Shown here: positions 3,168 to 31,564 of the stretch, piece after piece
How positions within the stretch are numbered: the first letter of the stretch is position 1
Layout: each line of letters begins with the position of its first letter
DNA from: Escherichia phage 11W
Strand: one strand, 5' to 3'
DNA length: 31,564 nucleotides
Sequence record: NC_070902.1
Notes under the pieces: generated by a model
Database searches by the model: none
Told to the model about the DNA's origin: nothing
Seen by the model: the letters and a program-made list of their open reading frames with translations, nothing else
Program-made: the position numbers and the translations under genes

Positions 3168-4022
3168 ATGGCAAAAAAAGTCTCAAAATTCTTTCGTATC
3201 GGCGTTGAGGGTGACACCTGTGACGGGCGTGTCATCAGTGCGCAGGATATTCAGGAAATGGCCGAAACCTTTGACCCGCGTGTCTATGGTTGCCGCATTA
3301 ACCTGGAACATCTGCGCGGCATCCTGCCTGACGGTATTTTTAAGCGTTATGGCGATGTGGTCGAACTGAAGGCCGAAAAGATTGACGATGATTCGGCGCT
3401 GAAAGGCAAATGGGCGCTGTTTGCGAAAATCACCCCGACCGATGACCTTATCGCGATGAACAAGGCCGCGCAGAAGGTCTATACCTCAATGGAAATTCAG
3501 CCGAACTTTGCCAATACCGGCAAATGTTATCTGGTGGGTCTGGCCGTCACCGATGACCCGGCAAGCCTCGGCACGGAATACCTGGAATTCTGCCGCACGG
3601 CAAAACACAACCCTCTGAACCGCTTCAAATTAAGCCCTGAAAACCTGATTTCAGTGGCAACGCCTGTTGAGCTGGAATTTGAAGACCTGCCTGAAACCGT
3701 GTTCACAGCCCTGACCGAAAAGGTGAAATCCATTTTTGGCCGCAAACAGGCCAGCGATGACGCCCGTCTGAATGACGTGCATGAAGCGGTGACCGCTGTC
3801 GCTGAGCATGTGCAGGAAAAACTGAGCGCCACTGAGCAGCGCCTTGCTGAGATGGAAACCGCCTTTTCCGCACTTAAGCAGGATGTGACTGACAGGGCGG
3901 ATGAAACCAGCCAGGCATTCACCCGCCTGAAAAACAGCCTCGACCACACCGAAAGTCTGACCCAGCAGCGCCGCAGCAAGGCCACCGGCGGTGGCGGTGA
4001 TGCCCTGATGACGAACTGCTGA
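3168..4022 (+). CDS. O: Capsid scaffolding protein (P2 gpO)
   Basis: Track ORF starts at 3102. The ATG at 3168 (MAKKVSKFFRIGVEGD) gives 284 aa, as in P2 O. Confidence 0.92.
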   Translation: MAKKVSKFFRIGVEGDTCDGRVISAQDIQEMAETFDPRVYGCRINLEHLRGILPDGIFKRYGDVVELKAEKIDDDSALKGKWALFAKITPTDDLIAMNKAAQKVYTSMEIQPNFANTGKCYLVGLAVTDDPASLGTEYLEFCRTAKHNPLNRFKLSPENLISVATPVELEFEDLPETVFTALTEKVKSIFGRKQASDDARLNDVHEAVTAVAEHVQEKLSATEQRLAEMETAFSALKQDVTDRADETSQAFTRLKNSLDHTESLTQQRRSKATGGGGDALMTNC

Positions 4023-4080
4023 CCGTCGTCAGTCAGTCCGGGAAAACCTTCACGATTAACCCTTAATTTCAGGAAAAACT

Positions 4081-5154
4081 ATGCGCCAGGAAACCCGCTT
4101 TAAATTTAATGCCTACCTGTCCCGTGTTGCCGAACTGAACGGCATCGACGCCGGTGATGTGTCGAAAAAATTCACCGTTGAACCGTCGGTCACCCAGACC
4201 CTGATGAACACCATGCAGGAGTCCTCTGACTTTCTGACCCGCATCAATATTGTGCCGGTCAGCGAAATGAAAGGGGAAAAAATTGGCATCGGTGTCACCG
4301 GCTCCATCGCCAGCACCACCGACACCGCCGGTGGCACCGAGCGTCAGCCGAAGGACTTCTCGAAGCTGGCGTCAAACAAGTACGAATGCGACCAGATTAA
4401 CTTCGATTTTTATATCCGCTACAAAACGCTGGACCTGTGGGCGCGTTATCAGGATTTCCAGCTCCGTGTCCGTAACGCCATTATCAAACGCCAGTCCCTT
4501 GATTTAATCATGGTCGGTTTTAACGGCGTGAGGCGTGCCGAAACCTCTGACCGCAACAGTAATCCGATGCTGCAGGATGTGGCGGTCGGCTGGCTGCAGA
4601 AATACCGCAATGAAGCCCCGGCGCGCGTGATGAGCAAGGTCACTGACGAGGAAGGGCACACCACCTCTGAGGTTATCCGCGTGGGTAAGGGCGGTGATTA
4701 TGCCAGCCTTGACGCACTGGTGATGGATGCGACCAACAACCTGATTGAGCCGTGGTATCAGGAAGACCCTGACCTTGTGGTGATTGTGGGACGTCAGCTA
4801 CTGGCGGACAAGTATTTTCCCATCGTCAACAAGGAGCAGGACAACAGCGAAATGCTGGCCGCTGACGTCATCATCAGCCAGAAACGCATCGGTAACCTGC
4901 CGGCGGTACGCGTCCCGTACTTCCCGGCGGATGCGATGCTCATCACAAAGCTGGAAAACCTGTCCATCTACTACATGGATGACAGCCATCGCCGCGTGAT
5001 TGAGGAAAACCCGAAACTCGACCGCGTGGAGAACTACGAGTCAATGAACATTGATTACGTGGTGGAAGACTACGCCGCCGGTTGTCTGGTGGAAAAAATT
5101 AAGGTCGGTGATTTCTCCACACTGGCTAAAGCGACCGCAGAGCCGGGAGCGTAA
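4081..5154 (+). CDS. N: Major capsid protein (P2 gpN)
   Basis: 357 aa, same as P2 N. Recognised sequence MRQETRFKFNAYLSRVAELNG. Confidence 0.94.
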   Translation: MRQETRFKFNAYLSRVAELNGIDAGDVSKKFTVEPSVTQTLMNTMQESSDFLTRINIVPVSEMKGEKIGIGVTGSIASTTDTAGGTERQPKDFSKLASNKYECDQINFDFYIRYKTLDLWARYQDFQLRVRNAIIKRQSLDLIMVGFNGVRRAETSDRNSNPMLQDVAVGWLQKYRNEAPARVMSKVTDEEGHTTSEVIRVGKGGDYASLDALVMDATNNLIEPWYQEDPDLVVIVGRQLLADKYFPIVNKEQDNSEMLAADVIISQKRIGNLPAVRVPYFPADAMLITKLENLSIYYMDDSHRRVIEENPKLDRVENYESMNIDYVVEDYAAGCLVEKIKVGDFSTLAKATAEPGA

Positions 5155-5157
5155 CCG

Positions 5158-5901
5158 ATGACGAGTCCCGCACAGCGCCACATGATGCGGGTCTCGGCAG
5201 CGATGACCGCGCAGCGGGAAGCCGCCCCGCTGCGACATGCAACTGTCTATGAGCAGATGCTGGTTAAGCTCGCCGCAGACCAGCGCACACTGAAAGCGAT
5301 TTATTCAAAAGAGCTGAAGGCCGCGAAAAAACGCGAACTGCTGCCGTTCTGGTTGCCGTGGGTGAACGGCGTGCTGGAGCAGGGCAAAGGTGCACAGGAT
5401 GACATTCTGATGACGGTCATGCTGTGGCGTCTGGATACCGGCGATATTGCCGGTGCGCTGGAGATTGCCCGTTATGCCCTGAAGTACGGTCTGACCATGC
5501 CGGGTAAACACCGCCGCCCCCCGCCGTACATGTTCACCGAGGAGGTGGCGCTCGCGGCCATGCGCGCCCACGCTGCCGGTGAGTCTGTGGATACCCGCCT
5601 GCTGACGGAGACCCTTGAACTGACCGCCACGGCTGACATGCCTGATGAAGTGCGCGCAAAGCTGCACAAAATCACCGGTCTGTTTCTGCGTGACGGTGGT
5701 GATGCCGCCGGTGCGCTGGCGCACCTGCAACGTGCGACACAGCTCGACTGTCAGGCAGGCGTCAAAAAAGAGATTGAACGACTGGAGCGGGAGCTGAAAC
5801 CGAAGCCGGAGCCGCAGCCCAAAGCGGCCACCCGCGCCCCGCGTAAGACCCGGAGCGTGACACCGGCAAAACGTGGACGCCCGAAAAAGAAAGCCAGTTA
5901 A
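5158..5901 (+). CDS. M: Terminase small/endonuclease subunit (P2 gpM)
   Basis: 247 aa, same as P2 M. Basic K/R-rich C-terminal tail. Position after N. Confidence 0.9.
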   Translation: MTSPAQRHMMRVSAAMTAQREAAPLRHATVYEQMLVKLAADQRTLKAIYSKELKAAKKRELLPFWLPWVNGVLEQGKGAQDDILMTVMLWRLDTGDIAGALEIARYALKYGLTMPGKHRRPPPYMFTEEVALAAMRAHAAGESVDTRLLTETLELTATADMPDEVRAKLHKITGLFLRDGGDAAGALAHLQRATQLDCQAGVKKEIERLERELKPKPEPQPKAATRAPRKTRSVTPAKRGRPKKKAS

Positions 5902-14623: not shown

Positions 14624-15151
14624 ATGCAGCATTTAAAAAATATTACGGCGGGTAATCCAAAAACGGTTGAACAATATCAATTGACAAAGGACTTTGATGT
14701 TGTCTGGNTTTTTTCAGAAGATGGTAAGAACTGGTACGAAGAACAAAAGTATTTTGCTGATGACACGATAAAAATAGCGTACGACAAAGATAATATTATC
14801 CGCTATGTGGAAAAGGATGTGACAGCTATCAGACCGGATGGATTAAGTGTTGTTGAAGTGGCGGATATTACTACTAACCGACGGGCGGACATTTCAGGGG
14901 GCTGGATGTTTAAGGACGGCAAAGTGATTAAACGCATTTATACGGCAGAGGAATTGCTGCAGCAGGCAGAAAACCGGAAAGCCAGACTTCTTGCAGATGC
15001 TGAATCCGTGATTTTGCCGCTGGAGCGCGCGGTCAGACTGAACATGGCAACAGATGAGGAGCGTAGCCGACTGGAAGCATGGGAACGCTACAGCGTTCTG
15101 GTCAGTCGTGTGGAGCCTGCAAATCCTAAATGGCCGGAAATGCCGCAATAA
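14624..15151 (+). CDS. G: Tail fibre assembly chaperone (P2 gpG)
   Basis: 175 aa, immediately after H. Ambiguous base at 14708. Confidence 0.88.
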
Positions 15152-16609
15152 GTTGTATGAGCTTACATATCTATTGCGTAGAGTAAAGCATAATCTGACA
15201 GTCCGCTCTGTGCCAGAAGCNGANNNTAGCAGGTGCCAGATGCATCTGTTATTCTTCATTGAATTGAGCAGTATCCTTAACAGGAACTCTGAATACATAA
15301 ATGAAGATGAAAAACATGTCTGAAGTGTTGACCCAAGAAAAGCTTATTTTTGTTGCTNNCCAGAGACTAANNNNACTNNNGAAGNNNNNGANNTATTNNN
15401 NNTTTGANATNAAGGNNCGNTNTGTTNACNAAGCNNCGNNNNAAANANATTNNNCTGGNNNGCTNAGTTCGCAGTTTGATNNTNGCNGCAATGNTTTGTT
15501 TCATGTATCGGAAANNATATNNNNNNNTTTATNCTGCGNAATNATCGTATTCTGATGNTGNAANNNNGAGGCTGCAGATGGANNNNNNNNANTANNNGTC
15601 AGANNGACTAANACTNTTGGGAGTNTGNNATCGNTNNNNAATNTTCACNGCCATNCNCGCTNNTNACTTTTNNTGNNTNNCAANNNNNNGNATNTNTTNN
15701 NNCTNTGANGAANNNNNNNNNNNNNNNNNNNNNNNNNGTNANTCGNNGCTGATTTTNTTGATNTCAACGAGCCTNNNNTNTGNNCCNTNAATTGTCNNNN
15801 NNAANNATTANNNGNGCCTNGNNAGCAGATTGCTGTCANCCTGAGAGTAGCGNAAGGTGATGAAAAAACATGNGTTTGATTANCTTTCTTCTGCAACCAT
15901 TAAGGAATGGCAATGATATTCAACGCTAAGGNTGTTNTTATTCGATATGGACNNNNNNNNNNNGNNNNNNANNNNNNNNNNNNNNNACGCNNTTTATTNN
16001 NNNCNNNNNNTGANGNAAANCNNNNNAATNNNCNTNANTNGNNAGNGNNTNAAATCAACACGACAGAAGGCGTTACNGAAGNTNAAAAGNGNNGNNNNNN
16101 ACTNTTATCAAAACTGCCACCGGATAGCTGGNCACTTGNCANTTNNNNNGGCAGNANNNNNNNNGAANACNNNNNATGAAAGNGNNTAATCTNNCNAANN
16201 NNNNGCTTNAACNCNATAGNAATGGTGTGTGNNCAGAAGATGTAATGANNGNAAAACCAAGNNNNGAGGNTTACATCNAANNNTTGNTNANNCTGNTGAA
16301 TGCGTGGTATTNNNNNNNNNNNNNNNNNNNNNNNNNNNNNNNNNNNNNNNNNNNNNNNNNATCNNNNGAAGCCCATGNCGTCAGCGAACTGTCTGACATT
16401 ATGGTCAAGATTTCCGNAGAACGTTTCANATNNANTNNNATNTGATNTNTGGTTAATCACGTTACACAATACGCATCAATGGACGCTGAGTAGTTCGCGA
16501 GTTTTAAACTTCCAACGTCCGCTTTTCGCTCCAAGCAGACTGTCAGATTTGATAGCGTTTTGGCTATGTAAATTGTCAGTCGGAAAATGAGTGAATACAA
16601 ATCAGGACA
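15152..16609. other. Variable cargo hotspot at the P2 Z/fun position; AT-rich and heavily N-masked, content unresolved
   Basis: About 1.46 kb between G and the terminator before FI. Dense interspersed N from about 15360 to 16445. Readable plus-strand fragments (MKMKNMSEVLTQEKLIFVA at 15301; MAMIFNAK at 15907; EAH.VSELSDIMVKIS.ERF near 16370) are not recognisable to me. Confidence 0.6.
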
Positions 16610-16637
16610 GGCGGGCTGATTGCCCGCCTTTTCTTTA
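16610..16637 (+). terminator. Rho-independent terminator closing the Z/fun-position hotspot
   Basis: Perfect 7-bp stem ggcgggc/gcccgcc with loop tgatt at 16610..16628, followed by ttttcttt. Confidence 0.75.
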
Positions 16638-16732
16638 TCTGTTGTTTCATCCCCTGACCAGCCAGGTCAAATAGCGTCTCATGCTCTGCACAACAGAAAA
16701 TAGTTGCACCCATTAACCACGGAGTTAAACGG
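16638..16732 (+). promoter_or_regulatory. Putative late promoter P_F region
   Basis: Intergenic region between the terminator and FI. Contains the dyad tgacc-N5-ggtca and the direct repeat tgcac-N13-tgcac. Exact Ogr site not resolved. Confidence 0.4.
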
Positions 16733-17923
16733 ATGAGTGACTATCATCACGGCGTGCAGGTGCTGGAGATTAACGACGGCACCCGCGTCATTTCCACCGT
16801 ATCCACTGCCATTGTCGGCATGGTCTGCACGGCCAGCGATGCGGATGCGGAAACCTTTCCCCTCAATAAACCTGTGCTGATTACCAATGTGCAGAGCGCA
16901 ATTGCAAAGGCCGGTAAAAAAGGCACGCTGGCGGCGTCGCTGCAGGCCATCGCCGACCAGTCAAAACCGGTCACCGTTGTTGTGCGCGTGGAAGACGGCA
17001 CCGGCGACGACGAGGAAACGAAACTTGCGCAGACCGTTTCCAATATCATCGGCACCACCGACGAAAACGGTCAGTACACCGGACTGAAAGCCCTGCTGGC
17101 GGCGGAGTCAGTAACCGGTGTTAAACCGCGTATTCTCGGCGTGCCGGGACTGGACACCAAAGAGGTGGCTGTTGCACTGGCATCGGTCTGTCAGAAGCTG
17201 CGCGCTTTCGGGTATATCAGCGCATGGGGCTGTAAGACCATTTCCGAGGTGAAAGCCTACCGCCAGAATTTCAGCCAGCGTGAGCTGATGGTCATCTGGC
17301 CGGATTTCCTCGCATGGGATACGGTCACCAGTACCACCGCCACCGCGTATGCCACCGCCCGTGCGCTGGGTCTGCGCGCTAAAATCGACCAGGAGCAGGG
17401 CTGGCATAAAACGCTGTCCAACGTCGGGGTGAACGGTGTTACCGGCATCAGCGCGTCCGTATTCTGGGATTTGCAGGAGTCCGGCACCGATGCTGACCTG
17501 CTTAACGAGTCAGGCGTCACAACGCTGATTCGCCGTGACGGTTTCCGCTTCTGGGGTAACCGTACCTGCTCTGATGACCCGCTGTTCCTCTTTGAAAACT
17601 ACACCCGCACCGCGCAGGTGCTGGCCGACACGATGGCTGAGGCGCACATGTGGGCGGTGGACAAGCCCATCACCGCAACGCTGATTCGCGACATCGTTGA
17701 CGGCATCAATGCCAAATTCCGTGAGTTGAAAACAAACGGCTATATCGTGGATGCGACCTGCTGGTTCAGCGAAGAATCCAACGATGCGGAAACCCTCAAG
17801 GCCGGAAAACTGTATATCGACTACGACTATACACCGGTACCTCCTCTTGAAAACCTGACCCTGCGCCAGCGTATTACCGATAAATACCTGGCAAATCTGG
17901 TCACCTCGGTTAACAGCAATTAA
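16733..17923 (+). CDS. FI: Contractile tail sheath protein (P2 gpFI)
   Basis: 396 aa, same as P2 FI. GGAG RBS upstream. Confidence 0.93.
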   Translation: MSDYHHGVQVLEINDGTRVISTVSTAIVGMVCTASDADAETFPLNKPVLITNVQSAIAKAGKKGTLAASLQAIADQSKPVTVVVRVEDGTGDDEETKLAQTVSNIIGTTDENGQYTGLKALLAAESVTGVKPRILGVPGLDTKEVAVALASVCQKLRAFGYISAWGCKTISEVKAYRQNFSQRELMVIWPDFLAWDTVTSTTATAYATARALGLRAKIDQEQGWHKTLSNVGVNGVTGISASVFWDLQESGTDADLLNESGVTTLIRRDGFRFWGNRTCSDDPLFLFENYTRTAQVLADTMAEAHMWAVDKPITATLIRDIVDGINAKFRELKTNGYIVDATCWFSEESNDAETLKAGKLYIDYDYTPVPPLENLTLRQRITDKYLANLVTSVNSN

Positions 17924-18786: not shown

Positions 18787-18938
18787 CGTTTCCGAAAAAT
18801 CTCTCGGTCGATGACCTGATGGCGGATGTGGCAGTGATATTTCACTGGCCGCCATCAGAACTGTATCCCATGAGCCTGACCGAACTCATCACATGGCGCG
18901 AAAAGGCGCTCCGGCGAAGCGGAAACACGAATGAGTAA
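18511..18938 (+). CDS. E': E+E' fusion made by programmed -1 frameshift at the end of E
   Basis: Slippery heptamer TTTTTTG at 18759..18765 within the last E codons. The -1 frame stays open to the TAA at 18936..18938, overlapping the T start. Same arrangement as P2 E/E'. Confidence 0.7.
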
Positions 18939-21379
18939 CAATGTAAAATTACAGGTATTGCTCAGGGCTGTTGACCAGGCATCCCGCCCGTTTAAATCCA
19001 TCCGCACAGCGAGCAAGTCGCTGTCGGGGGATATCCGGGAAACACAAAAATCACTGCGCGAGCTGAACGGTCACGCATCCCGTATTGAGGGATTTCGCAA
19101 GACCAGTGCGCAGCTCGCCGTGACTGGTCATGCACTTGAAAAGGCACGGCAGGAAGCCGAAGCCCTTGCCACACAGTTTAAAAACACCGAACGTCCAACC
19201 CGTGCTCAGGCGAAAGTGCTGGAATCCGCAAAGCGAGCGGCGGAGGACTTACAGGCGAAATATAACCGCCTGACGGATTCCGTTAAACGCCAGCAGCGGG
19301 AACTGGCCGCTGTGGGAATTAATACCCGCAATCTTGCACATGATGAGCAGGGACTGAAAAACCGTATCAGTGAAACCACCGCACAGCTTAACCGTCAGCG
19401 CGACGCGCTGGCGCGTGTCAGTGCGCAACAGGCAAAACTTAACGCAGTCAAACAGCGTTATCAGGCCGGAAAGGAACTGGCCGGAAATATGGCCTCAGTA
19501 GGCGCTGCCGGTGTGGGGATTGCGGCGGCGGGAACGATGGCCGGAGTTAAGTTGCTGATGCCCGGTTATGAGTTTGCGCAGAAAAACTCAGAATTGCAGG
19601 CCGTGCTCGGAGTGGCAAAAGACTCCGCCGAAATGACCGCACTACGCAAACAGGCGCGCCAGCTCGGCGACAATACCGCCGCCTCGGCGGATGATGCGGC
19701 CGGTGCACAGATAATCATCGCGAAAGCGGGTGGGGATGCTGCGGCTATTCAGGCGGCAACGCCGGTCACGCTGAATATGGCACTGGCGAATCAGCGGTCG
19801 ATGGAAGAAAACGCGCAACTGTTGCTGGGGACTAAGGCATCCTTTCAACTGTCAAATGATGATGTCAGCCATGTGGGCGACGTGTTGTCAGCAACGATGA
19901 ATAAGTCGGCGGCTGATTTTCAGGGACTCAGTGATGCACTGACTTACCTCGGTCCGGTTGCGAGGACGGCAGGTGTAAGTCTTGAGCAGGCAGCGGCCAT
20001 GACAGGTGTGCTGCATGACAATAACATCAGGGGGTCAATGGCGGGTACGGGTAGTAGTGCCGTTGTCACCCGATTACAGGCTCCGACAGGGAAAGCATGG
20101 GAAGCACTAAAAGAGCTTGGCGTTAAAACCTCGGACAAAAAGGGAAATATGCGTCCGTTGTTCACCATTCTGAAAGAGATTCAGGTCAGCTTTGATAAAC
20201 ACAAGCTGGGAACGTCTCAGAAGGGGGAATACCTTAAAACCATTTTTGGTGAGGAAGCCCTGAAATCAGNCGAACGTTTTACTGGCAGCGGCTGCAAGCG
20301 GAAAACTGGATAAGCTGACCGCCACGCTGAAAGCCTCGGACGGTAAAACGGAAGAGCTGGTTAAAATCATGCAGGACAACCTCGGCGGTGACTTTAAGGA
20401 GTTTCAGTCCGCTTATGAGGCGGTGGGGACTGACCTGTTTGACCAGCAGGAAGGCGCACTGCGTAATCTCACGCAGACGGCCACAAAGTATGTGTTAAAA
20501 CTCGACGGCTGGATCCAGAAAAACAAATCACTGGCGTCAACCATCGGCATCATTGTCGGTGGTGCACTGGCGCTGACTGGTGTCATCGGTGCCATTGGCC
20601 TCGTAGCCTGGCCGGTTATCACCGGCATCAATGCCATTATCGCGGCAGCAGGCGCAATGGGGGCAATCTTCACGACGGTTGGCAGTGCTGTTATGACGGC
20701 CATCGGGGCGATTAGCTGGCCGGTTGTGGCCGTGGTGGCTGCAATTGTCGCCGGGGCGTTGCTTATCCGTAAATACTGGGAGCCTGTCAGCGCATTCTTT
20801 GGCGGTGTGGTGGAAGGGCTGAAAGCGGCATTTGCGCCGGTGGGGGAACTGTTCGCGCCACTTAAGCCGGTGTTTGACTGGCTGGGTGAAAAGTTACAGG
20901 CCGCGTGGCAGTGGTTTAAAAACCTGATTGCCCCCGTCAAAGCCACCCAGGACACCCTGAACCGTTGCCGTGATACGGGCGTCATGTTCGGGCAGGCACT
21001 GGCTGACGCGCTGATGCTGCCGCTTAATGCGTTCAACAAACTGCGCAGCGGCATTGACTGGGTACTGGAAAAACTCGGTGTTATCAACAAAGAGTCAGAC
21101 ACACTTGACCAGACCGCCGCCAGAACTCATGCCGCCACGTATGGCACCGGTGGTTATATTCCGGCGACCAGCTCTTATGCAGGCTATCAGGCTTATCAGC
21201 CGGTCACGGTACCGGCTGGTCGCTCTTATGTGGACCAGAGTAAAAACGAATATCACATCAGCCTGACGGGTGGTACTGCGCCGGGGACACAGCTTGACCG
21301 CCAGTTACAGGATGCGCTCGAAAAATACGAGCGGGATAAACGTGCGCGCGCCCGTGCCAGCATGATGCATGACGGTTAA
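18931..21379 (+). CDS. T: Tail tape measure protein (P2 gpT); apparent frameshift at an ambiguous base
   Basis: Two ORFs (18931..20313, 460 aa; 20369..21379, 336 aa) together approximate P2 T. The frame changes next to the n at 20270. Span length is not a multiple of 3, consistent with a single-base error. Confidence 0.8.
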
Positions 21380-21873: not shown

Positions 21874-23036
21874 TGCTGGATGCGCTGACATTTGATGCAG
21901 GCAGTACGCTGACGCCGGATTACATGCTGATGCTCGACAGCAGGGATATTACCGGCAATATCAGCGACCGTCTGATGAGCATGACCCTGACGGATAACCG
22001 GGGCTTTGAGGCTGACCAGCTTGATATTGAACTGAACGACGCCGACGGGCAGGTAGGGCTACCGGTTCGTGGCGCTGTCCTGACGGTGTATATCGGCTGG
22101 AAAGGTTTTGCCCTGGTATGCAAAGGGAAATTTACCGTTGATGAGGTTGAACACCGGGGCGCACCGGATGTGGTCACCATCCGCGCCCGGAGTGCAGATT
22201 TTCGCGGGACGCTCAATTCCCGCCGTGAAGGCTCCTGGCATGACACCACGCTCGGTGCGATTGTTGAGGCGATAGCCTCCCGTAACAGGCTGGAAGCCAG
22301 TGTCGCGCCGTCACTGGCAGGAATTAAAATCCCGCACATTGACCAGTCGCAGGAGTCTGATGCGAAATTCCTGACCCGTCTTGCAGAACGCAACGGCGGT
22401 GAGGTGTCGGTAAAAATGGGAAAACTGTTGTTTCTCAAAGCGGGGCAGGGCGTGACGGCCAGCGGTAAAAAAATCCCGCAGATTACCATCACCCGCAGCG
22501 ACGGCGACCGTCATCATTTTGCGATTGCTGACCGTGGAGCTTACACCGGCGTAACGGCAAAGTGGTTACACACCAAAGACCCGAAGCCGCAAAAGCAGAA
22601 GGTAAAACTGAAACGCAAAAAGAAAGAAAAACACCTGCGCGCACTGGAGCACCCGAAAGCGAAACCGGTCACGCAGAAGAAAGCGCCAAAAGTACCGGAA
22701 GCGCGCGAAGGTGAATACATGGCCGGTGAAGCTGACAACGTTTTTGCCCTGACTACGGTATATGCCACGAAAGCACAGGCCATGCGCGCCGCTCAGGCGA
22801 AGTGGGATAAACTGCAACGGGGCGTTGCGGAGTTCTCCATCAGCCTTGCCACTGGTCGTGCTGATATTTACACGGAAACACCGGTCAGAGTGTCAGGCTT
22901 TAAGCGCGTCATAGACGAGCAGGACTGGACAATCACTAAGGTGACACATTTTCTGAATAATAGCGGCTTCACGACGTCCTTGGAGCTTGAGGTCAGGCTT
23001 TCTGATGTGGAGTACGAAACAGAAGATGATGAGTAA
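21873..23036 (+). CDS. D: Tail protein (P2 gpD)
   Basis: 387 aa, same as P2 D. Overlaps the U stop. Confidence 0.9.
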   Translation: MLDALTFDAGSTLTPDYMLMLDSRDITGNISDRLMSMTLTDNRGFEADQLDIELNDADGQVGLPVRGAVLTVYIGWKGFALVCKGKFTVDEVEHRGAPDVVTIRARSADFRGTLNSRREGSWHDTTLGAIVEAIASRNRLEASVAPSLAGIKIPHIDQSQESDAKFLTRLAERNGGEVSVKMGKLLFLKAGQGVTASGKKIPQITITRSDGDRHHFAIADRGAYTGVTAKWLHTKDPKPQKQKVKLKRKKKEKHLRALEHPKAKPVTQKKAPKVPEAREGEYMAGEADNVFALTTVYATKAQAMRAAQAKWDKLQRGVAEFSISLATGRADIYTETPVRVSGFKRVIDEQDWTITKVTHFLNNSGFTTSLELEVRLSDVEYETEDDE

Positions 23037-23117
23037 TGTTTTTATTTTATCTGTTTGTTTTATAAGGATAAATTAACTAAAATGGCACCGTCAACAAAAC
23101 CGGAAGAGGTGCTCGCG

Positions 23118-23336
23118 ATGTTTCATTGTCCTTTATGCCAGCATGCCGCACATGCGCGTACAAGCCGCTATATCACTGACACGACAAAAGAGCGTTATCA
23201 CCAGTGTCAGAACGTGAATTGCAGCGCCACGTTCATCACTTATGAGTCGGTACAGCGATACATCGTGAAGCCGGGAGAAGTCCACGCCGTAAGACCGCAC
23301 CCGTTGCCGTCAGGGCAGCAAATTATGTGGATGTAA
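23118..23336 (+). CDS. ogr: Late gene transcriptional activator Ogr (Cys4 zinc finger)
   Basis: 72 aa from the ATG at 23118 (MFHCPLCQHAAHARTSRYITDTTKERYHQCQNVNC). C-x2-C-x22-C-x4-C spacing. Track ORF starts upstream at 23055. Confidence 0.92.
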   Translation: MFHCPLCQHAAHARTSRYITDTTKERYHQCQNVNCSATFITYESVQRYIVKPGEVHAVRPHPLPSGQQIMWM

Positions 23337-23350
23337 TTACAAACAGGAAG

Positions 23351-23374
23351 CCCCTCAGTCGAGGGGCTTTTTTG
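23351..23374 (+). terminator. Rho-independent terminator after ogr
   Basis: Stem gcccctc/gaggggc with loop agtc, followed by T6. Confidence 0.8.
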
Positions 23375-23551
23375 TCAATGTGGTCAATGTGTGGACGTGA
23401 CCAGAAATAAATCCTTTTATTTCACGTGATTAGATATCAAAAAATGTCACCAATAACTGACTTGGTAGCCCCCGCCGTAGCGGTATTTTCTGTTGTATTA
23501 CAATTAGTTAAATTACTCATATCGCTTCAATTGGCTCTAGTTAACTCTGGT
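23375..23551. other. attP: attP region (core not identified)
   Basis: Lies between ogr and the int 3' end, as in P2. Tandem gtcaatgtg x2 at 23375..23392 and tgtggacg at 23391..23398. I could not find the remembered P2 core sequence. Confidence 0.5.
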
Positions 23552-24547
23552 TTATGGACGCATTATGGACATTCCTGACACCGGGTTAAGAGTCACAGCA
23601 TCTTGTAAGAAATCCGGTGCAAAGTGTGCGTAGGTCATAGTTTGCTGAATGTTAGAATGACCCAGGATGCGCTGCAATGTGATTATGTTACCTCCATTCA
23701 TTATAAAATGTGTGGCAAATGTATGCCTCAAAACATGTACTGCTTGTCCGTCAGGTAAATCGGGTTTTACTTCCCTGAGAGCGTTACGCACTTTGTAGTA
23801 ACTGGCATTAAAAAGCCTGCCTGAATTTTTGGTCTTGATCCGTTTAATCAGGTCCTGCGAAACGGGAATTGTCCTGCGTTTTCCGTTTTTAGTTTTCATA
23901 AACGTAACCATCTGGTTAATGATGTGTTCAGCTTTTAAATTAGACACTTCACTCCAGCGTCCACCAGTAGAAAGGCAGACCAGAGTTGCATTTAATTCAT
24001 CACCATCAAGCATGGATAACAGCCGCGTAATCTCTTCACTGGACAAAAAAGCCATTTCCGTAACAGCTTCACGTAACCGTTTAATCTCACGGAACGGGTT
24101 GTGGGAGTGGTATTCACCGGCGTCAATTAACTTGGTGAACATCCCGCTCATTATTGCCAGATGTCGATTTACGCTGGCTGGTTTTAGACCATCGTTCATC
24201 ATTACAACGCGATAATCAGTTATCGTTTTCTTTGTTAGCTGGTCAGCTCTGGACACTCCCATTTCTGCAAATTTGGCGATTATTGTCGTTAAACGCCCCC
24301 GTTCAATATCTCCACGCTCATGTGATTTTCCGTGATATATCCACCATCTACCTAACAACTCTGTAAGAGTTCGGCGGTCGGCTGGTTTCTCCAACCACTC
24401 TTTGTTGTGGTAGTTAACCAATACATGACGTTCGAATGCCTGAGCTTCACCTTTAGTTTTAAATTTCCGCCTGATACGTTTTCCATCTGCACCCTGCGGT
24501 CTGACGTCCACTTCATAACGACCATCATCGAGCTTTTTAATAGACAT
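23552..24547 (-). CDS. int: Tyrosine integrase
   Basis: 331 aa. C-terminal catalytic region HVLRHTFATHFIMNGGNIITLQRILGHSNIQQTMTYAHF (R, H-x-x-R, Y). Confidence 0.93.
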   Translation of the reverse strand: MSIKKLDDGRYEVDVRPQGADGKRIRRKFKTKGEAQAFERHVLVNYHNKEWLEKPADRRTLTELLGRWWIYHGKSHERGDIERGRLTTIIAKFAEMGVSRADQLTKKTITDYRVVMMNDGLKPASVNRHLAIMSGMFTKLIDAGEYHSHNPFREIKRLREAVTEMAFLSSEEITRLLSMLDGDELNATLVCLSTGGRWSEVSNLKAEHIINQMVTFMKTKNGKRRTIPVSQDLIKRIKTKNSGRLFNASYYKVRNALREVKPDLPDGQAVHVLRHTFATHFIMNGGNIITLQRILGHSNIQQTMTYAHFAPDFLQDAVTLNPVSGMSIMRP

Positions 24548-24640
24548 AAAGCCCTCCGATGACGCTGTTTACTTCTACTACTTGAAAATTAATGCAATTT
24601 TCTTTCGTACATTTACTACACACATATGCTGAATAAATCG

Positions 24641-24940
24641 TCAGCCAGTCTTCTGGTCTGAGTGGTGCAAGGTTGTTGAGTCTTGCCCAATGTGTGCGAG
24701 AGCCGGGGCTATTTGTCCAGCTGCTGGATCTGTTTCATCAAACATGAACCAGTCACGATACTTGCGAAAGCGTGGATGCTTAAACAGCTTCATACCTGCT
24801 TCCATAGGCATTTTTGATTTTCCTGATTCATATCCATGATATGTGTAGTAATTAATTCCAATTAATTCAGCAAGTTCCTTAGTTTTAAGGCGTTCGGATT
24901 CACGGATGAGCTTTAGTTTCTCACTTTGTTCACTTGACAT
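24641..24940 (-). CDS. C: Immunity repressor C (P2 C-like, divergent N-terminal half)
   Basis: 99 aa from the ATG at 24940 (track ORF starts at a TTG at 24958). C-terminus GQIAPALAHIGQ...HSDQKTG resembles remembered P2 C; N-terminal half differs. Confidence 0.8.
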   Translation of the reverse strand: MSSEQSEKLKLIRESERLKTKELAELIGINYYTYHGYESGKSKMPMEAGMKLFKHPRFRKYRDWFMFDETDPAAGQIAPALAHIGQDSTTLHHSDQKTG

Positions 24941-25033
24941 AATTTTGCTAATCTCCAATTATATTGCTACTTGGCAATTTGTGATTCACTCAAAAAGGCT
25001 CTAGATGGCTCCAGTTGGTGAATCGCAAATCTT
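24941..25033. promoter_or_regulatory. Divergent Pc/Pe promoter-operator region of the lysis-lysogeny switch
   Basis: 93-bp gap between divergent C and cox. Direct-repeat-like elements tttgtgattcac and ttggtgaatcgc. Confidence 0.55.
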
Positions 25034-25405
25034 ATGGAGGATAGCAAAGTGACGACAAATGTAGAAATTTCTTGTCCAACTAGCGATGAGGCAAGTTTCG
25101 AAAATGAAGCCAAACGTAAAAGCATTCAGATTTCAGAGCGCCCATCTGATTTGCTGTCGAAAGAAGGTTTTGCTCTTTACATCGGTAAGACACCACGCGC
25201 GGTGGCTGAAATGGCTAAAGCAGGAAAGCTGCCAGCCTTCTACATGACAGACCCATTAAAACCAAGAGGGAAAGCTGAATTATGGATTAATCGCCGTGAG
25301 TGGGACAAGTACGCAGCCCAACTGGTTGATGAAGCTCCGACAGAATGGCATGACTGGAAAAATCGCATTAGTTACAGCAAATCAAGACATGGCCGTGCGG
25401 CTTAA
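25034..25405 (+). CDS. cox: Cox-like excisionase / early-promoter repressor (longer than P2 Cox)
   Basis: Resembles remembered P2 Cox in the stretch FALYIGKTPRAVAEMAKAGKLPAFYMTDP. 123 aa from the ATG; a GTG at 25049 has a better GGAGG RBS and gives 118 aa. Confidence 0.6.
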   Translation: MEDSKVTTNVEISCPTSDEASFENEAKRKSIQISERPSDLLSKEGFALYIGKTPRAVAEMAKAGKLPAFYMTDPLKPRGKAELWINRREWDKYAAQLVDEAPTEWHDWKNRISYSKSRHGRAA

Positions 25406-25415
25406 GGTGGAAAGT

Positions 25416-27169: not shown

Positions 27170-29438
27170 AGCCTCCGGGCGTTTTGTCCCTCCGTCAGCA
27201 TTTGCCGCAGGCACCGGTAAGACGTTTACCGGTGCTTATGCATGGAACGCGCCACGCGAGGCCGTCGGGCGCGAAAGACCCCTTACACGTGACGAGATGC
27301 GTCAGGTGCAAGGTGTTTTATCCACGATTAACCGCCTGCCTTACTTTTTGCGCTCGCTGTTTACTTCACGCTATGACTACATCCGGCGCAATAAAAGCCC
27401 GGTGCACGGGTTTTATTTCCTCACATCCACTTTTCAGCGTCGTTTATGGCCGCGCATTGAGCGTGTGAATCAGCGCCATGAAATGAACACCGACGCGTCG
27501 TTGCTGTTTCTGGCAGAGCGTGATCACTATGCGCGCCTGCCGGGAATGAATGACAAGGAGCTGAAAAAGTTTGCCGCCCGTATCTCATCGCAGCTTTTCA
27601 TGATGTATGAGGAACTCAGCGATGCCTGGGTGGATGCGCATGGCGAAAAAGAATCACTGTTTACGGATGAGGCTCAGGATCACCTGTATGGTCATGTTGC
27701 TGGCGCTGCACGAGCTTTCAATATTTCCCCTCTCTACTGGAAAAAATACCGTAAAAGACAGATGACCACGAGGCAGGCATATTCTGCCATTGCCCGTCTG
27801 TTTAACGATGAGTGGTGGACTCATCAGCTTAAAGGCCAGCGTATGCGCTGGCATGAAGCGTTACTGATAGCTGTCGGGGAGGTCAATAAAGACCGTTCTC
27901 CTTATGCCAGTAAACACGCCATTCGTGATGTGCGTGCGCGCCGCCAGGCAAATCTGGAATTTCTTAAATCGTGTGACCTTGAAAACAGGGAAACCGGCGA
28001 GCGCATCGACCTTATCAGTAAGGTGATGGGCAGTATTTCTAATCCTGAAATTCGCCGGATGGAGCTGATGAACACCATTGCCGGTATTGAGCGTTACGCC
28101 GCTGCAGAGGGTGATGTGGGGATGTTTATCACGCTGACCGCGCCGTCAAAGTATCACCCGACACGTCAGGTAGGAAAAGGCGAAAGTAAAACCGTGCAGC
28201 TTAATCACGGCTGGAACGATGAGGCATTTAATCCAAAGGATGCGCAGCGTTATCTCTGCCGTATCTGGAGCCTGATGCGCACGGCATTCAAGGATAATGA
28301 TTTACAGGTCTACGGTTTGCGTGTCGTCGAGCCACACCACGACGGAACGCCGCACTGGCATATGATGCTTTTTTGTAATTCACGCCAGCGTAACCAGATT
28401 ATCGAAATCATGCGTCGCTATGCGCTCAAAGAGGATGGCGACGAAAGAGGAGCCGCGCGAAACCGTTTTCAGGCAAAACACCTTAACCGGGGCGGTGCTG
28501 CGGGATATATCGCGAAATACATTTCAAAAAACATCGACGGCTATGCACTGGATGGTCAGCTCGATAACGACACCGGCAGGCCGCTGAAAGACACTGCAGC
28601 GGCTGTTACCGCATGGGCGTCAACGTGGCGCATCCCGCAATTTAAAACGGTTGGCCTGCCGACAATGGGGGCTTACCGTGAACTACGCAAATTGCCGCGC
28701 GGCGTCAGCATTGCTGATGAGTTTGACGAGCGCGTCGAGGCTGCACGCGCCGCCGCAGACAGTGGTGATTTTGCGTTGTATATCAGCGCGCAGGGTGGGG
28801 CAAATGTCCCGCGCGATTGTCAGACTGTCAGAGTCGCCCGTAGCCCGTCGGATGAAGTTAACGAGTACGAGGAAGAAGTCGAGAGAGTGGTCGGCATTTA
28901 CGCGCCGCATCTCGGCGCGCGTCATATTCATATCACCAGAACGACGGACTGGCGCATTGTGCCGAAAGTTCCGGTCGTTGAGCCTTTGACTTTAAAAAGC
29001 GGCATCGCCGCGCCTCGGAGTCCTGTCAATAACTGTGGAAAGCTCACCAGTGGTGATACTTCGTTACCGGCTCCCACACCTTCTGAACACGCCGCAGCAG
29101 TGCTTAATCTGGTTGATGACGGTGTTATCGAATGGAATGACCCGGAGGTCGTGAGGGTGCTCAGGGGCGCATTAAAACACGGCCTGAGAACACCAAATCG
29201 TCAGCAAAGAAACGGAAGCCCGTTAAAACCACATGAAATTGCACCATCGGCCAGGCTGACCCGGCCGGAACGATTGCAAATTACCCGTATCCGCGTTGAC
29301 CTTGCTCAGAACGGTATCAGGCCTCAGCGATGGGAGCTTGAGGCGCTGGCGCGTGGGGCTACCATAACATATGGCAGGAAGACGTTTATATATCCTACAA
29401 TCGATGTGTGTTTGGGATATTCTGCTTTTACAAAATGA
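27159..29438 (+). CDS. A: Rolling-circle replication initiator (P2 gpA, HUH endonuclease)
   Basis: 759 aa from the ATG at 27159 (MAVKASGRFVPPSAFAAGTGK). HUH motif TPHWHMMLF and tandem tyrosines YIAKYISKN. Last ~25 residues differ from what I recall of P2 A. Confidence 0.92.
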   Translation: MAVKASGRFVPPSAFAAGTGKTFTGAYAWNAPREAVGRERPLTRDEMRQVQGVLSTINRLPYFLRSLFTSRYDYIRRNKSPVHGFYFLTSTFQRRLWPRIERVNQRHEMNTDASLLFLAERDHYARLPGMNDKELKKFAARISSQLFMMYEELSDAWVDAHGEKESLFTDEAQDHLYGHVAGAARAFNISPLYWKKYRKRQMTTRQAYSAIARLFNDEWWTHQLKGQRMRWHEALLIAVGEVNKDRSPYASKHAIRDVRARRQANLEFLKSCDLENRETGERIDLISKVMGSISNPEIRRMELMNTIAGIERYAAAEGDVGMFITLTAPSKYHPTRQVGKGESKTVQLNHGWNDEAFNPKDAQRYLCRIWSLMRTAFKDNDLQVYGLRVVEPHHDGTPHWHMMLFCNSRQRNQIIEIMRRYALKEDGDERGAARNRFQAKHLNRGGAAGYIAKYISKNIDGYALDGQLDNDTGRPLKDTAAAVTAWASTWRIPQFKTVGLPTMGAYRELRKLPRGVSIADEFDERVEAARAAADSGDFALYISAQGGANVPRDCQTVRVARSPSDEVNEYEEEVERVVGIYAPHLGARHIHITRTTDWRIVPKVPVVEPLTLKSGIAAPRSPVNNCGKLTSGDTSLPAPTPSEHAAAVLNLVDDGVIEWNDPEVVRVLRGALKHGLRTPNRQQRNGSPLKPHEIAPSARLTRPERLQITRIRVDLAQNGIRPQRWELEALARGATITYGRKTFIYPTIDVCLGYSAFTK

Positions 29439-29492
29439 ATGGTGTCGGAACATAATATTTTCAGGTGTTCAAAGAGTTTGTTCTGATGTTCT

Positions 29493-29520
29493 TGCTATTT
29501 TTGTTTCTTTTGATGAAAAT
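29493..29520 (+). promoter_or_regulatory. Candidate sigma70 promoter for the hotspot membrane-protein gene
   Basis: ttgcta, 16-nt spacer, gaaaat; about 35 nt upstream of the ATG at 29554. Confidence 0.3.
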
Positions 29521-29553
29521 GGCGTCTTTAAAATTGGTTAAAAGGTGTGTTGT

Positions 29554-30042
29554 ATGGATGGTTTATGGGAAAAAATATCGTCTTATAATATATTTAACAA
29601 TCTCTTTCCCGGTGCTTTGTTTATTTATTTGTTTGAGCGGGCAACCAATGTGATATTATCCACAGATGATGTTGTTAAGAATGTGGTACTTTACTATTTT
29701 ACGGGGATAATTATCGGAAGGATTGGGTCTATTGTTTTTGAGCCTGTGTTGAAATTTTTGGGGCTGGTAAAATTTGTTCCATATGAGGAATATATCTCAG
29801 CATGTAGAAAGGATAATAAAATAGAGCTTCTTCAAGAAACTGCAAATATGTATAGGACGTTATTCTCTATGTCCTTGGTTTTTTTGTTTTCTTTGTTTTT
29901 TGTTTCGTTTGTAGTTGGTGGTGATTACATGGCGTCGAAATGGATTTCATTGTTTTTGATTTTTGTTTTTATTGTGTCGTACGTTAAGCAAATTAAGTTT
30001 ATTACATTAAGAGTGAGTAAGGCTAATAATAAGCTGCCCTAA
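29554..30042 (+). CDS. Small multi-pass membrane protein, unknown function (hotspot cargo, tin position)
   Basis: 162 aa from the ATG at 29554 (AAAGG RBS). About four hydrophobic segments (FPGALFIYLF; VVLYYFTGIIIGRIGSIVF; LFSMSLVFLFSLFFVSFVVGG; WISLFLIFVFIVSYV). AT-rich codons. Confidence 0.6.
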   Translation: MDGLWEKISSYNIFNNLFPGALFIYLFERATNVILSTDDVVKNVVLYYFTGIIIGRIGSIVFEPVLKFLGLVKFVPYEEYISACRKDNKIELLQETANMYRTLFSMSLVFLFSLFFVSFVVGGDYMASKWISLFLIFVFIVSYVKQIKFITLRVSKANNKLP

Positions 30043-30050
30043 GGCAGCTT
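30031..30050. terminator. Hairpin between convergent hotspot genes (candidate bidirectional terminator)
   Basis: Perfect 8-bp stem aagctgcc/ggcagctt with loop ctaa, overlapping the stop of the membrane-protein gene and 7 nt from the MBL gene stop. Confidence 0.5.
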
Positions 30051-30056
30051 AACGAA

Positions 30057-31142
30057 TTATTCTTCAGTCTTATAACTCCTTGCGTATGAGCGTGGGGTGA
30101 CTGCAGTCCAGCCATCTCTGGCGGGGGCATTACTAGAATGGCGTTTATTGGTGCCTTCTGTGGCGACTACTTTGGCTCCACGCCTTGTAAAAGCATTAAT
30201 GACCGCTTGATGAGGGTGTTTATCGGAATCCGGTGCGCATGATATAAATGCACAAACACCACTTCTTCCTCCTTCGCTTACAATATTTCCAACGAGCTTA
30301 TTTAGCACCGCTGGACCGATGTTTCTCCTGCTTCCATGGTGGGGCACTTGAATAAATGATAATGAGTTATTATTTATATGATCAGCAGCCATATCTAATG
30401 CAGTTATTCCTGCATCACCTGTAAATACTAGTGTTTTATTGTCAATTTCAATTTTTAATATAACGCTTGAATTGTTTTGTGCAGTAGTTGTGTCCTTGTC
30501 ATCAATTCCCTCATCAGAGAACCAATCAGCAATATACTCGACTTGTTCTTTGGCTTTCTCAAAAAAGTAGTTATATGCATCTGTACCACTGGTTGCAGTT
30601 GTTTCTGCTTTTTCAGGCATTCTTGCAAAATCGGGGATTAATGTTTCATAGTATGCTTGTGTTGGTCCAATAACAACCAGTTTAGAATTGTCCCAAGTCC
30701 TGCCTTGAAAAGGCTCCTTAATTTCTATTCCTTTTTTTTTCGCTGATTTGACGGCATCATAGGCTTTTTGTAGATTATCTTGTATACGTCTGGCAATACT
30801 TGCATCTGTTATCCTTCCATCAGCAAATTCCTGCGCGAGATTTTCATTATGCTCCCAAGGCTGGTGAATCCAGAACTCTTTGACTTCCGCATTCTCAATC
30901 ACATGCTCAAGGCCGCCAGCATGGTCGCTATCTGGATGCGTGGATATGAGTAAGTCAATAGTATTTGTATGATAGTATTTCTGTAAATGTTCAATTATTT
31001 GTGGACCAGTGCTTGCGTACCCCGCATCAATTACGACAACTTTTTGCTCTGCTCTTGTTCCGTGGAGGTTGCCCCATCTTATGCAGATAGCATCTCCACT
31101 TTTTTTTTCTCCAACTGCTAAGAAATCAACTTCGTAACCCAT
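30057..31142 (-). CDS. Metallo-beta-lactamase-fold hydrolase, putative nuclease (hotspot cargo, old position)
   Basis: 361 aa. MBL-fold motifs VVVIDAGY, THPDSDHAGG (variant of THxHxDHxGG), TGDAG and VPHHGSRRN. AT-rich. Not part of the P2 backbone as I know it. Confidence 0.7.
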   Translation of the reverse strand: MGYEVDFLAVGEKKSGDAICIRWGNLHGTRAEQKVVVIDAGYASTGPQIIEHLQKYYHTNTIDLLISTHPDSDHAGGLEHVIENAEVKEFWIHQPWEHNENLAQEFADGRITDASIARRIQDNLQKAYDAVKSAKKKGIEIKEPFQGRTWDNSKLVVIGPTQAYYETLIPDFARMPEKAETTATSGTDAYNYFFEKAKEQVEYIADWFSDEGIDDKDTTTAQNNSSVILKIEIDNKTLVFTGDAGITALDMAADHINNNSLSFIQVPHHGSRRNIGPAVLNKLVGNIVSEGGRSGVCAFISCAPDSDKHPHQAVINAFTRRGAKVVATEGTNKRHSSNAPARDGWTAVTPRSYARSYKTEE

Positions 31143-31564
31143 TCTTGTGCCCTTCTGTAGTTTTCAACTTTATGTAAGTGTTGTACGCCAAAGTAGTGCA
31201 GGACTTGATTAGGCAATCAAAGACCTTTAAAACAATATCAGGATGCATAAATATTCGTGTCTAGATCAATAGATTAGATCGAGTTTTTGATAATCAATTT
31301 GCGCCTGCTTCTTGATAACCGTTGTTAGTGTAAATTTTGCGCAATGTAATTGGCAAATCACTGCGATATGAGTTGCGTGCCAGCCAGCTTTAATATGCAG
31401 ACTTTGCTATATCTTTCTACACGATTTTTATTTTCAGATGTGCAAGCATTAGGCGCATTGTTTTGCATGCGTTGGAGCTGCTAGTTTAGATCGTGCTCCG
31501 TCAGAATAGGCGCGACACCATGGTGGTCATGCACCTGCATTAAAACCGACCCATGAAGCGGGCG
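31143..31564. other. AT-rich non-coding right end: presumed promoter of the MBL gene and right cos-proximal sequence
   Basis: No ORF over 60 aa. Sits upstream of the minus-strand MBL gene. The window ends where the left cos sequence would resume on circularisation. Confidence 0.5.

Follow-up and report, generated by a model that had tools for sequence, protein, structure and literature searches.

The N-rich Z/fun slot of the Escherichia phage 11W record superimposes two already deposited cargos and is probably a consensus artefact

Integron attC cassettes and the pdif modules of Acinetobacter plasmids are cassettes bounded by short palindromic recombination sites. In P2-like phages, the Z/fun locus is known as a second variable hotspot that is enriched in defence genes (Vassallo 2022, PMC9519451; Egorov 2024, bioRxiv 10.1101/2024.10.15.618418); the work of Rousset (2022) treats only the other P2 hotspot. 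Among the Nudix hydrolases, the CDP-Chase/UDP-Xase subfamily is defined by an N-terminal helical domain, a length of 200-210 aa, and the motifs G-U-x-ar-x2-D-x-ar-D-x-[ED]-R-ar and LPxLS together with a subfamily Nudix box (PMC3655063). The S. pneumoniae UDP-X diphosphatase (PDB 4hfq) and its close structural relative, the B. cereus CDP-Chase, which hydrolyses CDP-choline, are both also 3'-5' RNA exonucleases, and these activities are known only for these two Gram-positive enzymes (PMC3655063).

The window analysed here is the stretch of 31,564 nt recorded for Escherichia phage 11W (NC_070902.1), and all positions are given in the numbering of the whole window unless a phage is named. The stop codon of gene G (15151) and the start of gene FI (16733) are separated by 1,581 nt, in good agreement with the gap of about 1.5 kb given in the initial annotation, which was also right to see in it a known variable slot of P2-like phages: this is the Z/fun slot, their second hotspot. 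Of the 389 N in the window, 386 lie within 15221-16449, where they are split into 148 runs of 1 to 49 positions (the longest being 49, 25 and 15). The ambiguity is thus interspersed and nearly all at one locus, as had been noticed from the sequence, although to call the slot almost entirely N-masked was an overstatement, since N accounts for 26.0% of 15152-16637 and for 35.0% of the dense core at 15358-16449.

The features of the slot and its flanks are collected in Table 1. Homology with P2-like phages of other cargo stops at 15223, in the left hairpin site (L), and L is the start of the cassette in lambdoid and other contexts also. The slot had been described as AT-rich and as ending at a strong terminator. 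The called bases are indeed only 40.2% GC, compared with 52.0% for the whole window, but part of this is an artefact, as N prefers the G and C of the underlying cassette; the resolved slot of phage P24C9 has a GC content of 46.3%. A hairpin with a T run does stand at 16604-16641, but it belongs to the conserved P2 backbone and not to the cargo, because the sequence from 16514 onward is common to P2-like phages with other cargo. Rfam gave no family match for either the slot or the window as a whole.

Table 1. Features of the G-FI slot and its flanks in the 11W window, with the basis for each assignment.
Feature	Position	Strand	Basis
Gene G, tail fibre assembly; left flank	14624..15151	+	ORF; 100% identical to P24C9/10W
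Left 24-nt hairpin site L, GTCCGCTCTGTGCCAGAAGCGGAC, 2 positions N here; left cargo boundary	15201..15224	+	Homology break, recurrence
Second hairpin followed by T-rich run; first cassette-specific sequence	15226..15252	+	Fold and terminator-like scan; P24C9 equivalent 15207-15233
Nudix hydrolase gene remnant; frame broken, Nudix box region absent	15301..15883	+	Wildcard alignment, tblastn, Pfam on the P24C9 copy
Dense N zone; column-wise blend of P24C9-type cassette and P24E6b-type cargo	15358..16449	.	382 N in 1,092 nt; alignment scores, column counts
HAD-IA phosphatase gene remnant; frame broken as written	15907..16456	+	Wildcard alignment, tblastn, PF13419, NCBIfam PRK11587-like below cut-off
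Right 24-nt hairpin site R, GTCCGCTTTTCGCTCCAAGCAGAC; right cargo boundary	16517..16540	+	Hairpin, recurrence across contexts
Intrinsic-terminator-like hairpin and T run; P2 backbone upstream of FI	16604..16641	+	Fold -20.7 kcal/mol, z = -4.2
Gene FI, tail sheath; right flank	16733..17923	+	ORF; identical to P24C9

The closest relatives of the slot are found in two phages, Peduovirus P24C9 (NC_049388 / LR595883) and Escherichia phage 10W (OM475433), both of which cover 15100-16700 in full in BLAST comparisons; the flanks, 15 kb to the left of the slot and 7 kb to its right, are 100% identical to the window. The products annotated for the G-FI slot of both phages are a NUDIX hydrolase and a HAD hydrolase. 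Both genes start and stop at the same positions, and the long called runs of the window match this slot in order: of 23 called runs of 8 nt or more in 15358-16449, 22 were found exact and colinear in the P24C9 slot, against a mean of 0.07 for a shuffled reference. With N treated as a wildcard, the window aligns to P24C9 with 1,206 matches, 11 mismatches and 331 aligned N, while 272 P24C9 bases are absent and 93 window bases are extra. The window differs from the P24C9/10W slot in being 150 nt shorter, in its 386 N, in 42 bases that come from the cargo of another phage, and in that both genes are broken; the missing stretches include 75, 89, 29 and 22 nt, and the Nudix box and HAD motif I are lost with the two largest.

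The peptide fragments of the slot, which had been taken as unrecognisable, are pieces of these two proteins. A tblastn search with the P24C9 slot proteins against the plus strand of the window recovered residues 1-69 of the Nudix protein (E = 1e-13) and residues 78-114 and 129-209 of the HAD protein (E = 3e-15); in P24C9 the corresponding genes span 15282-15920 (212 aa) and 15944-16588 (214 aa). A homologue of P2 Z/fun is absent from the slot, and the content can be said not to be Z/fun because the P2 records match the flanks only (19% query coverage). A Z/fun homologue on its own, with N calls explained by simple low coverage, had been named in the initial annotation as the contrary outcome, and this is not what was found.

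A second sequence is present in the same block. Peduovirus P24E6b (NC_049389) and phages D8 and 12W have a slot of 1,144 nt which contains a 197-aa orphan ORF and a small ORF, unrelated to the Nudix-HAD cassette; the P24E6b cargo protein has no Pfam family and no PADLOC match. In global alignment with N as wildcard, this cargo scores 80.5 against the window slot. By comparison, 100 shuffles averaged 2.1 +/- 1.9 (maximum 10), and none of 13 other real cargos, comparable in size and composition, scored above 11. Local scores in three sub-regions are 64, 58 and 62.5, compared with about 19 +/- 2. Among the called bases that P24C9 cannot explain, 42 of 49 match P24E6b, and a shuffled cargo explains 0; at 15394-15451, for example, the P24E6b sequence TATT...TTTGATAATTAAGGTGCGGTATGTTTACTAAGCGACGATTAAAAAATATT can be read from the called bases between the N.

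The placement of the N follows the two parents when each is aligned to the window, a choice on which the strength of the result depends. In columns where the parents agree, 442 bases are called and 37 are N (92% called); where they differ, 75 are called as P24C9, 11 as P24E6b and 183 are N (68% N). Columns found in P24C9 only have 339 called bases and 110 N, and those in P24E6b only have 31 called bases and 45 N. One or both of these known parents account for 898 of the 905 called cargo bases. Parent-to-parent alignments of the cargos made independently of the window (MAFFT and four Needleman-Wunsch schemes) predict the N pattern weakly, with an N fraction of 0.17-0.21 at agreeing versus 0.31-0.33 at differing columns, and the enrichment is weak because alignments of unrelated sequences are arbitrary. 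The base composition at the N sites bears on the same point: N falls preferentially on G or C of the P24C9 cassette (59.5% GC at N sites versus 39.6% at called sites, p = 3e-8), which is an effect at the level of the base and not of the region, and the P24E6b slot cargo has a GC content of 35%, so that chance agreement with it is likelier at A or T, which accounts for the preference of N for G and C. The N block is therefore two non-homologous cargos in one alignment, with N mainly at their disagreements, the P24C9/10W cassette being dominant and the P24E6b cargo minor. The content under the N is the Nudix-HAD cassette and the P24E6b orphan ORF, both of them already deposited in GenBank. The initial annotation had considered the content unresolved and perhaps a second cargo system; cargo it is, and not Z/fun, but it is resolved, as both of the superimposed cargos had already been sequenced.

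The same two parents make up the window as a whole. The left 15 kb is 100% P24C9/10W, and in a three-way alignment the window agrees with P24C9 at 917 of the 919 informative sites that can be aligned, the exceptions being 1 of 901 SNPs and 1 of 18 indel columns. N occurs at none of these sites, and thus at 0 of 900 backbone SNPs that separate the parents. P24C9 does not cover two blocks on the right, at 23425-25401 and at 29360-31564, and both of these are 100% identical to P24E6b, and also to D8 and 12W; positions 1-18 of the window are likewise P24E6b, and the P24C9 record lacks these bases. Every block in which the parents cannot be aligned is thus pure P24E6b. The frame of the record is also that of P24E6b: position 1 of the window is position 2 of P24E6b, both end together at the end of the P24E6b record (31128), and the difference in length, 437 nt, is the difference between the slots (1,581 versus 1,144 nt). 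P24E6b thus contributes the frame of the record and the minor part of the N block, and also two blocks that in its own record lie at 22989-24965 (int/C/cox) and 28924-31128 (A-Q cargo); its slot cargo is at about 15226-16080 there. P24C9 has an integrase block of its own and a DprA-PRTase cargo. The parents have 25, 1 and 5 bases in common at the three switch points, each of which falls precisely where alignability ends. Had parents of 97% identity undergone homologous recombination, P24E6b alleles would be expected to hitch-hike into the flanks of the joints, and none were found there.

Only three N lie outside the slot region. Those at 11936 and 14708 are the first bases of an A6 and a T7 run at which P24C9, 10W and P24E6b agree, and this position at the start of homopolymers where three genomes concur argues that real reads were involved. 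The third, at 20270, is an inserted N where P24C9 reads CAGCG and P24E6b reads CAGCCG; it cuts the tape-measure ORF to 460 aa, compared with 815 aa in P24C9, and this frameshift is an artefact. No sibling with the same junctions, and no other copy of the cassette in a P2 context, was found in IMG/VR, GTDB genomes or JGI metagenomes, nor was a complete E. coli genome found that carries the same prophage.

We consider it probable that the composite is a consensus artefact, in which two known cargos were merged, and that a reference-guided consensus rather than biology is its most likely cause. As reconstructed from the finished sequence alone, reads of a phage of the P24C9/10W type would have been placed on a reference of the P24E6b type, with the P24E6b sequence retained where no reads mapped and overwritten where they did; in the slot, reads that mapped badly would have yielded a blend, with N where support was weak, and the true slot content of the sample would be an intact Nudix-HAD cassette. 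P24E6b appears to act as a reference and not as a co-present haplotype, because none of the 900 SNPs is N and the sequence is pure P24E6b where the parents cannot be aligned. Some observations fit a consensus artefact less well: a pipeline that falls back on its reference would not obviously insert a non-reference cassette of about 1.1 kb into the slot only, the other two divergent blocks stay clean reference with edges free of overhang, and the cargo alignments made independently of the window predict the N pattern weakly. A natural or laboratory recombinant backbone is formally possible. Real heterogeneity, in the form of two P2-like phages, or of one backbone polymorphic for two slot cassettes, collapsed by the assembler, seems unlikely to us. 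Two distinct cargos are demonstrably superimposed, the N at 20270 was inserted where the parents differ, and the slot is a site of cassette exchange in nature; a co-present P24E6b, however, should give N or minority calls at the 900 backbone SNPs, and there are none, compared with 68% N at differing columns of the slot. Nothing of P24C9 type is seen in the other two divergent blocks, which are wholly P24E6b, and the frame of the window is exactly that of the P24E6b record. The earlier suggestion of population heterogeneity or a poor consensus at this locus was therefore apt in that two sequences were merged here, but with 0 of 900 SNPs as N a biological population is improbable as their source.

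Plain noisy reads or low coverage over one Nudix-HAD cassette, with no second sequence involved, is contradicted by the demonstrated contribution of the P24E6b cargo. It would suit the isolated N at homopolymer starts elsewhere in the window, the indels in the block and the even spread of N over codon positions (107/116/105, p = 0.67), but we hold it to be very unlikely, given that 42 called bases are explained by the P24E6b cargo alone (0 for shuffles), that the alignment score is highly significant, and that N tracks base identity, as it should if agreement with an AT-rich partner arises by chance. Read at face value, the record would describe a natural recombinant with a Nudix-HAD cassette decayed by real deletions, those of 75, 89, 29 and 22 nt, and poorly sequenced. 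Gaps in the alignment of the P24E6b cargo fall at the same places as the missing stretches, and joints of 1 and 5 shared bases at the edges of homology are unlike homologous recombination; since the inserted N frameshifts the essential tape-measure gene, the indels in the record are best seen as not biological. We find such decay scarcely credible, even though the slot falls a net 150 nt short of that of P24C9 and its two largest gaps take out the Nudix box and HAD motif I. The probability that a novel cargo system lies under the N is negligible: nothing beyond the presence of N speaks for it, and 898 of 905 called bases are explained by known parents, with 22 of 23 runs found in P24C9. Other candidates were considered and rejected. 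A diverged homologous allele masked by N was ruled out, there being no bias in codon position (the counts given above), and also because the copies of the cassette in 22 E. coli genomes, 12 IMG/VR contigs and 2 phages are all at least 99.2% identical; cross-talk with a lambdoid-prophage copy of the cassette in the same host, at about 99% identity, cannot yield 35% N and indels.

With a consensus artefact as the preferred reading, the main import of these results is a warning of quality. The window does not represent a single phage, and no new gene combination should be read from it; the N block, the integrase/immunity block at 23425-25413 and the portal-adjacent cargo at 29360-31564 come most likely from a different phage than the backbone. 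Nor does the window add anything to the biology of the cargo, which is already deposited.

The families of the two cargo proteins were assigned on the resolved P24C9 copies and not on the text of the window. In the P24C9 Nudix protein, Pfam identifies Nudix_N (PF12535, E = 8e-18) and PF00293 (E = 8e-19), and its Nudix box is GWADVGDTPSEAVRREVEEETGL, in which D replaces the first E of G-x5-E-x7-REUxEExGU. The protein aligns end to end with PDB 3q1p (residues 19-204, E = 7e-50), which we take to be CDP-Chase, and with 3o8s and 4hfq. The presence of PF12535, GLTYSKDVFDKERY, the subfamily Nudix box and LPELS places the P24C9 copy in the CDP-Chase/UDP-Xase subfamily, with which it shares the architecture of a helical Nudix_N and a Nudix domain in about 207-212 aa; conserved between them are GLTYSKDVFDKERY, ETGYATPK, the box G-x5-D-x7-REVEEETGL, and LPELS. 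In the window, the Nudix box lies in the missing stretch of 75 nt, and what can be read is the first 69 residues and a fragment of the C-terminus; the N-terminal motif region of the subfamily is retained as fragments only. While the subfamily has been described as Gram-positive only (PMC3655063), here it is found in coliphages and in chromosomes of Enterobacteriaceae. Chromosomal orthologues with 60-84% identity are present in Cedecea, Leclercia, Enterobacter and other Enterobacteriaceae; none of them has a HAD neighbour, the Nudix gene standing alone there, which suggests that the Nudix-HAD pairing is specific to the phage cassette.

The HAD protein of P24C9 (214 aa) matches PF13419 in Pfam (E = 5e-22) and classes as a HAD-IA phosphatase of the sugar-phosphate type, with the four HAD motifs (DxDGT, S/T, K and E/DD) present in its translation as DMDGT, LVTSAG, GKPSPEGY and FEDASAG; of these regions the window has readable LFDMD, residues 78-114 and residues 129-209 only. 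The top NCBIfam model, with coverage of the whole protein, is that of the E. coli sugar phosphatase YfbT/HxpA (PRK11587), but the score of 191 bits is below the 282-bit cut-off of this equivalog, so that the P24C9 protein is a paralogue and not YfbT. In PADLOC 2.0, the Nudix protein has a match only to PDC-S07 (36.8 bits), which reflects the generic Nudix fold, and the HAD protein has none. As a working model drawn from family membership only, the Nudix enzyme would cleave a pyrimidine nucleoside-diphosphate-X, of the UDP-sugar or CDP-alcohol type, to NMP and phospho-X, and the HAD phosphatase would then strip the phosphate from phospho-X; acting jointly, the two would irreversibly drain a pool of activated sugar or alcohol precursor.

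The cassette behaves as a discrete unit of 1,490 bp, which in P24C9 extends over 15183-16672 and corresponds to 15201-16540 of the window. The same unit, with identical ends, is present between a DUF977 gene and hokD in lambdoid prophages, at the tail end of another lambdoid prophage, adjoining an integrase in an island, and in one further context. It was found in 22 of 5,426 complete E. coli genomes, 0 of them in a P2 context, in 12 IMG/VR contigs and in 2 phages. An empty site was found neither for the lambdoid locus nor for the P2 slot. Compared with morons, autonomous units of promoter, gene and terminator within a prophage, the cassette has hairpins at both ends, the strong terminator is part of the backbone, and there is no sigma-70-like site in P24C9 15100-16900 (shuffles give 2.5).

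The cassette opens and closes with L and R, imperfect palindromes of 24 nt, with the sequence GTCCGCTnTGTGCCAnAAGCGGAC for L and GTCCGCTTTTCGCTCmAAGCrGAC for R. Scanning IMG/VR for L yielded 79 contigs. Where at least 3 kb of downstream sequence was available, an R-like site followed within 6 kb at 46 of 49 L sites; upstream it occurred at 4 of 60. The 62 L-R pairs enclose 30 cargo clusters in at least 10 flank contexts, and three cargos were seen in at least two contexts, with the break inside the sites. Position 8 of L and positions 16-24 of R track the genomic context, and position 16 of L and positions 1-10 of R track the cargo. Cargo enclosed by L and R includes DarG/DarT, a type III-A retron reverse transcriptase, NsnA-like, SIR2-like and DUF4209/PDC-S39 proteins, and metabolic genes. 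We found no paper that contains the L or R sequences.

It is conceivable, though on balance doubtful, that L and R are where a dedicated mechanism of cassette exchange acts, one common to P2-like and lambdoid temperate phages. Under such a mechanism defence and metabolic cargos, among them the Nudix-HAD pair, DarTG, retron reverse transcriptases and DUF4209/PDC-S39 proteins, would be swapped between phage genomes that are otherwise unrelated, and the superimposed cargos of the window might even reflect a population that is polymorphic at one of these sites. Double crossover by short homology at two short conserved hairpins, in place of a dedicated recombinase, explains the observations equally well. 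No integrase or Xer-type gene linked to the slot was found in the P2-like or lambdoid contexts, and no circular intermediate of the cassette was found. If a specific mechanism does exist, it would account for the movement of defence cargo between P2-like and lambdoid prophages, and the L/R pair would provide a simple sequence handle for harvesting cargo; the hairpin pair is the one lead that we think worth keeping. An integron cassette has a single attC site and a linked IntI integrase with attI; with two different bounding sites, and no integrase next to the slot in the P2-like or lambdoid contexts, the unit falls outside this definition. It resembles the integron attC and pdif systems in that varied cargo is held between conserved short imperfect palindromes and the same cargo recurs in different replicons, and it differs from them in that L and R are distinct sites, whose loops, TGTGCCA and TCGCTC, are not alike.

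The whole window (1-31564) is a composite of two deposited P2-like phages, P24C9 and P24E6b. It carries the P24C9 allele at 917 of the 919 alignable informative sites, every block that cannot be aligned between the two parents is 100% P24E6b, and the record frame is that of the P24E6b record. The block with the integrase, the C repressor and cox meets the P24C9-type sequence at two joints, where just 25 bases and 1 base are shared.

Ambiguous bases also occur singly outside the slot between G and FI. An A6 run begins with the N at 11936 and a T7 run with that at 14708, and at both positions P24C9, P24E6b and a further P2-like phage, 10W, share the same base; these two calls reflect homopolymer uncertainty at the level of the reads, and the consensus therefore drew on real reads. 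The N at 20270, at a site that is CAGCG in P24C9 and CAGCCG in P24E6b, is an insertion that shifts the frame of the tape-measure gene, leaving an ORF of 460 aa (18931-20313) against 815 aa for its P24C9 counterpart.

Between gene A and the portal gene lies a two-gene cargo whose products match PDC-M48, a candidate system in PADLOC (M48A, E = 7e-49; M48B, E = 6e-99). Since this block is 100% identical to P24E6b, it may be carried over from the reference rather than being the sample's own cargo.

Coordinates of the features discussed
Feature	Sequence	Position	Remark
L, 24-nt imperfect palindrome	window	15201-15224	left edge of slot
R, 24-nt imperfect palindrome	window	16517-16540	right edge of slot
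Integrase, C repressor, cox block	window	23425-25413	100% P24E6b-type
Membrane protein and metallo-beta-lactamase-fold protein	window	29545-31142	between gene A and portal gene
Nudix gene	P24C9 (L003)	15282-15920	CDP-Chase/UDP-Xase subfamily
Locus between DUF977 gene and hokD, holding a DUF4209 protein	E. coli ATCC 25922 lambdoid prophage (L021)	3697-5800	PADLOC PDC-S39 match, E = 2e-102

The hairpin sites L and R recur among IMG/VR phage contigs, where at least 30 distinct cargos of 397-5,404 nt lie between L-then-R pairs (loci L009-L094). The genomic settings of these pairs number at least 10 and are of P2-like as well as lambdoid type. An R was found within 6 kb downstream for 46 of 49 L sites and upstream for 4 of 60, and in each site the outer half tracks the genomic context while the inner half tracks the cargo. 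The interval between the DUF977 gene and hokD in lambdoid prophages is likewise a cargo hotspot with the same L and R sites, and the DUF4209 cargo of ATCC 25922 is tabulated as an example.

In P24C9 the slot holds a Nudix gene with a HAD neighbor. No HAD neighbor was present beside the chromosomal orthologs of this Nudix gene (L022-L027), which share 60-84% identity with it and are found in Cedecea, Leclercia, Enterobacter and their relatives; the subfamily to which the phage gene belongs was originally described as restricted to Gram-positive bacteria (PMC3655063).
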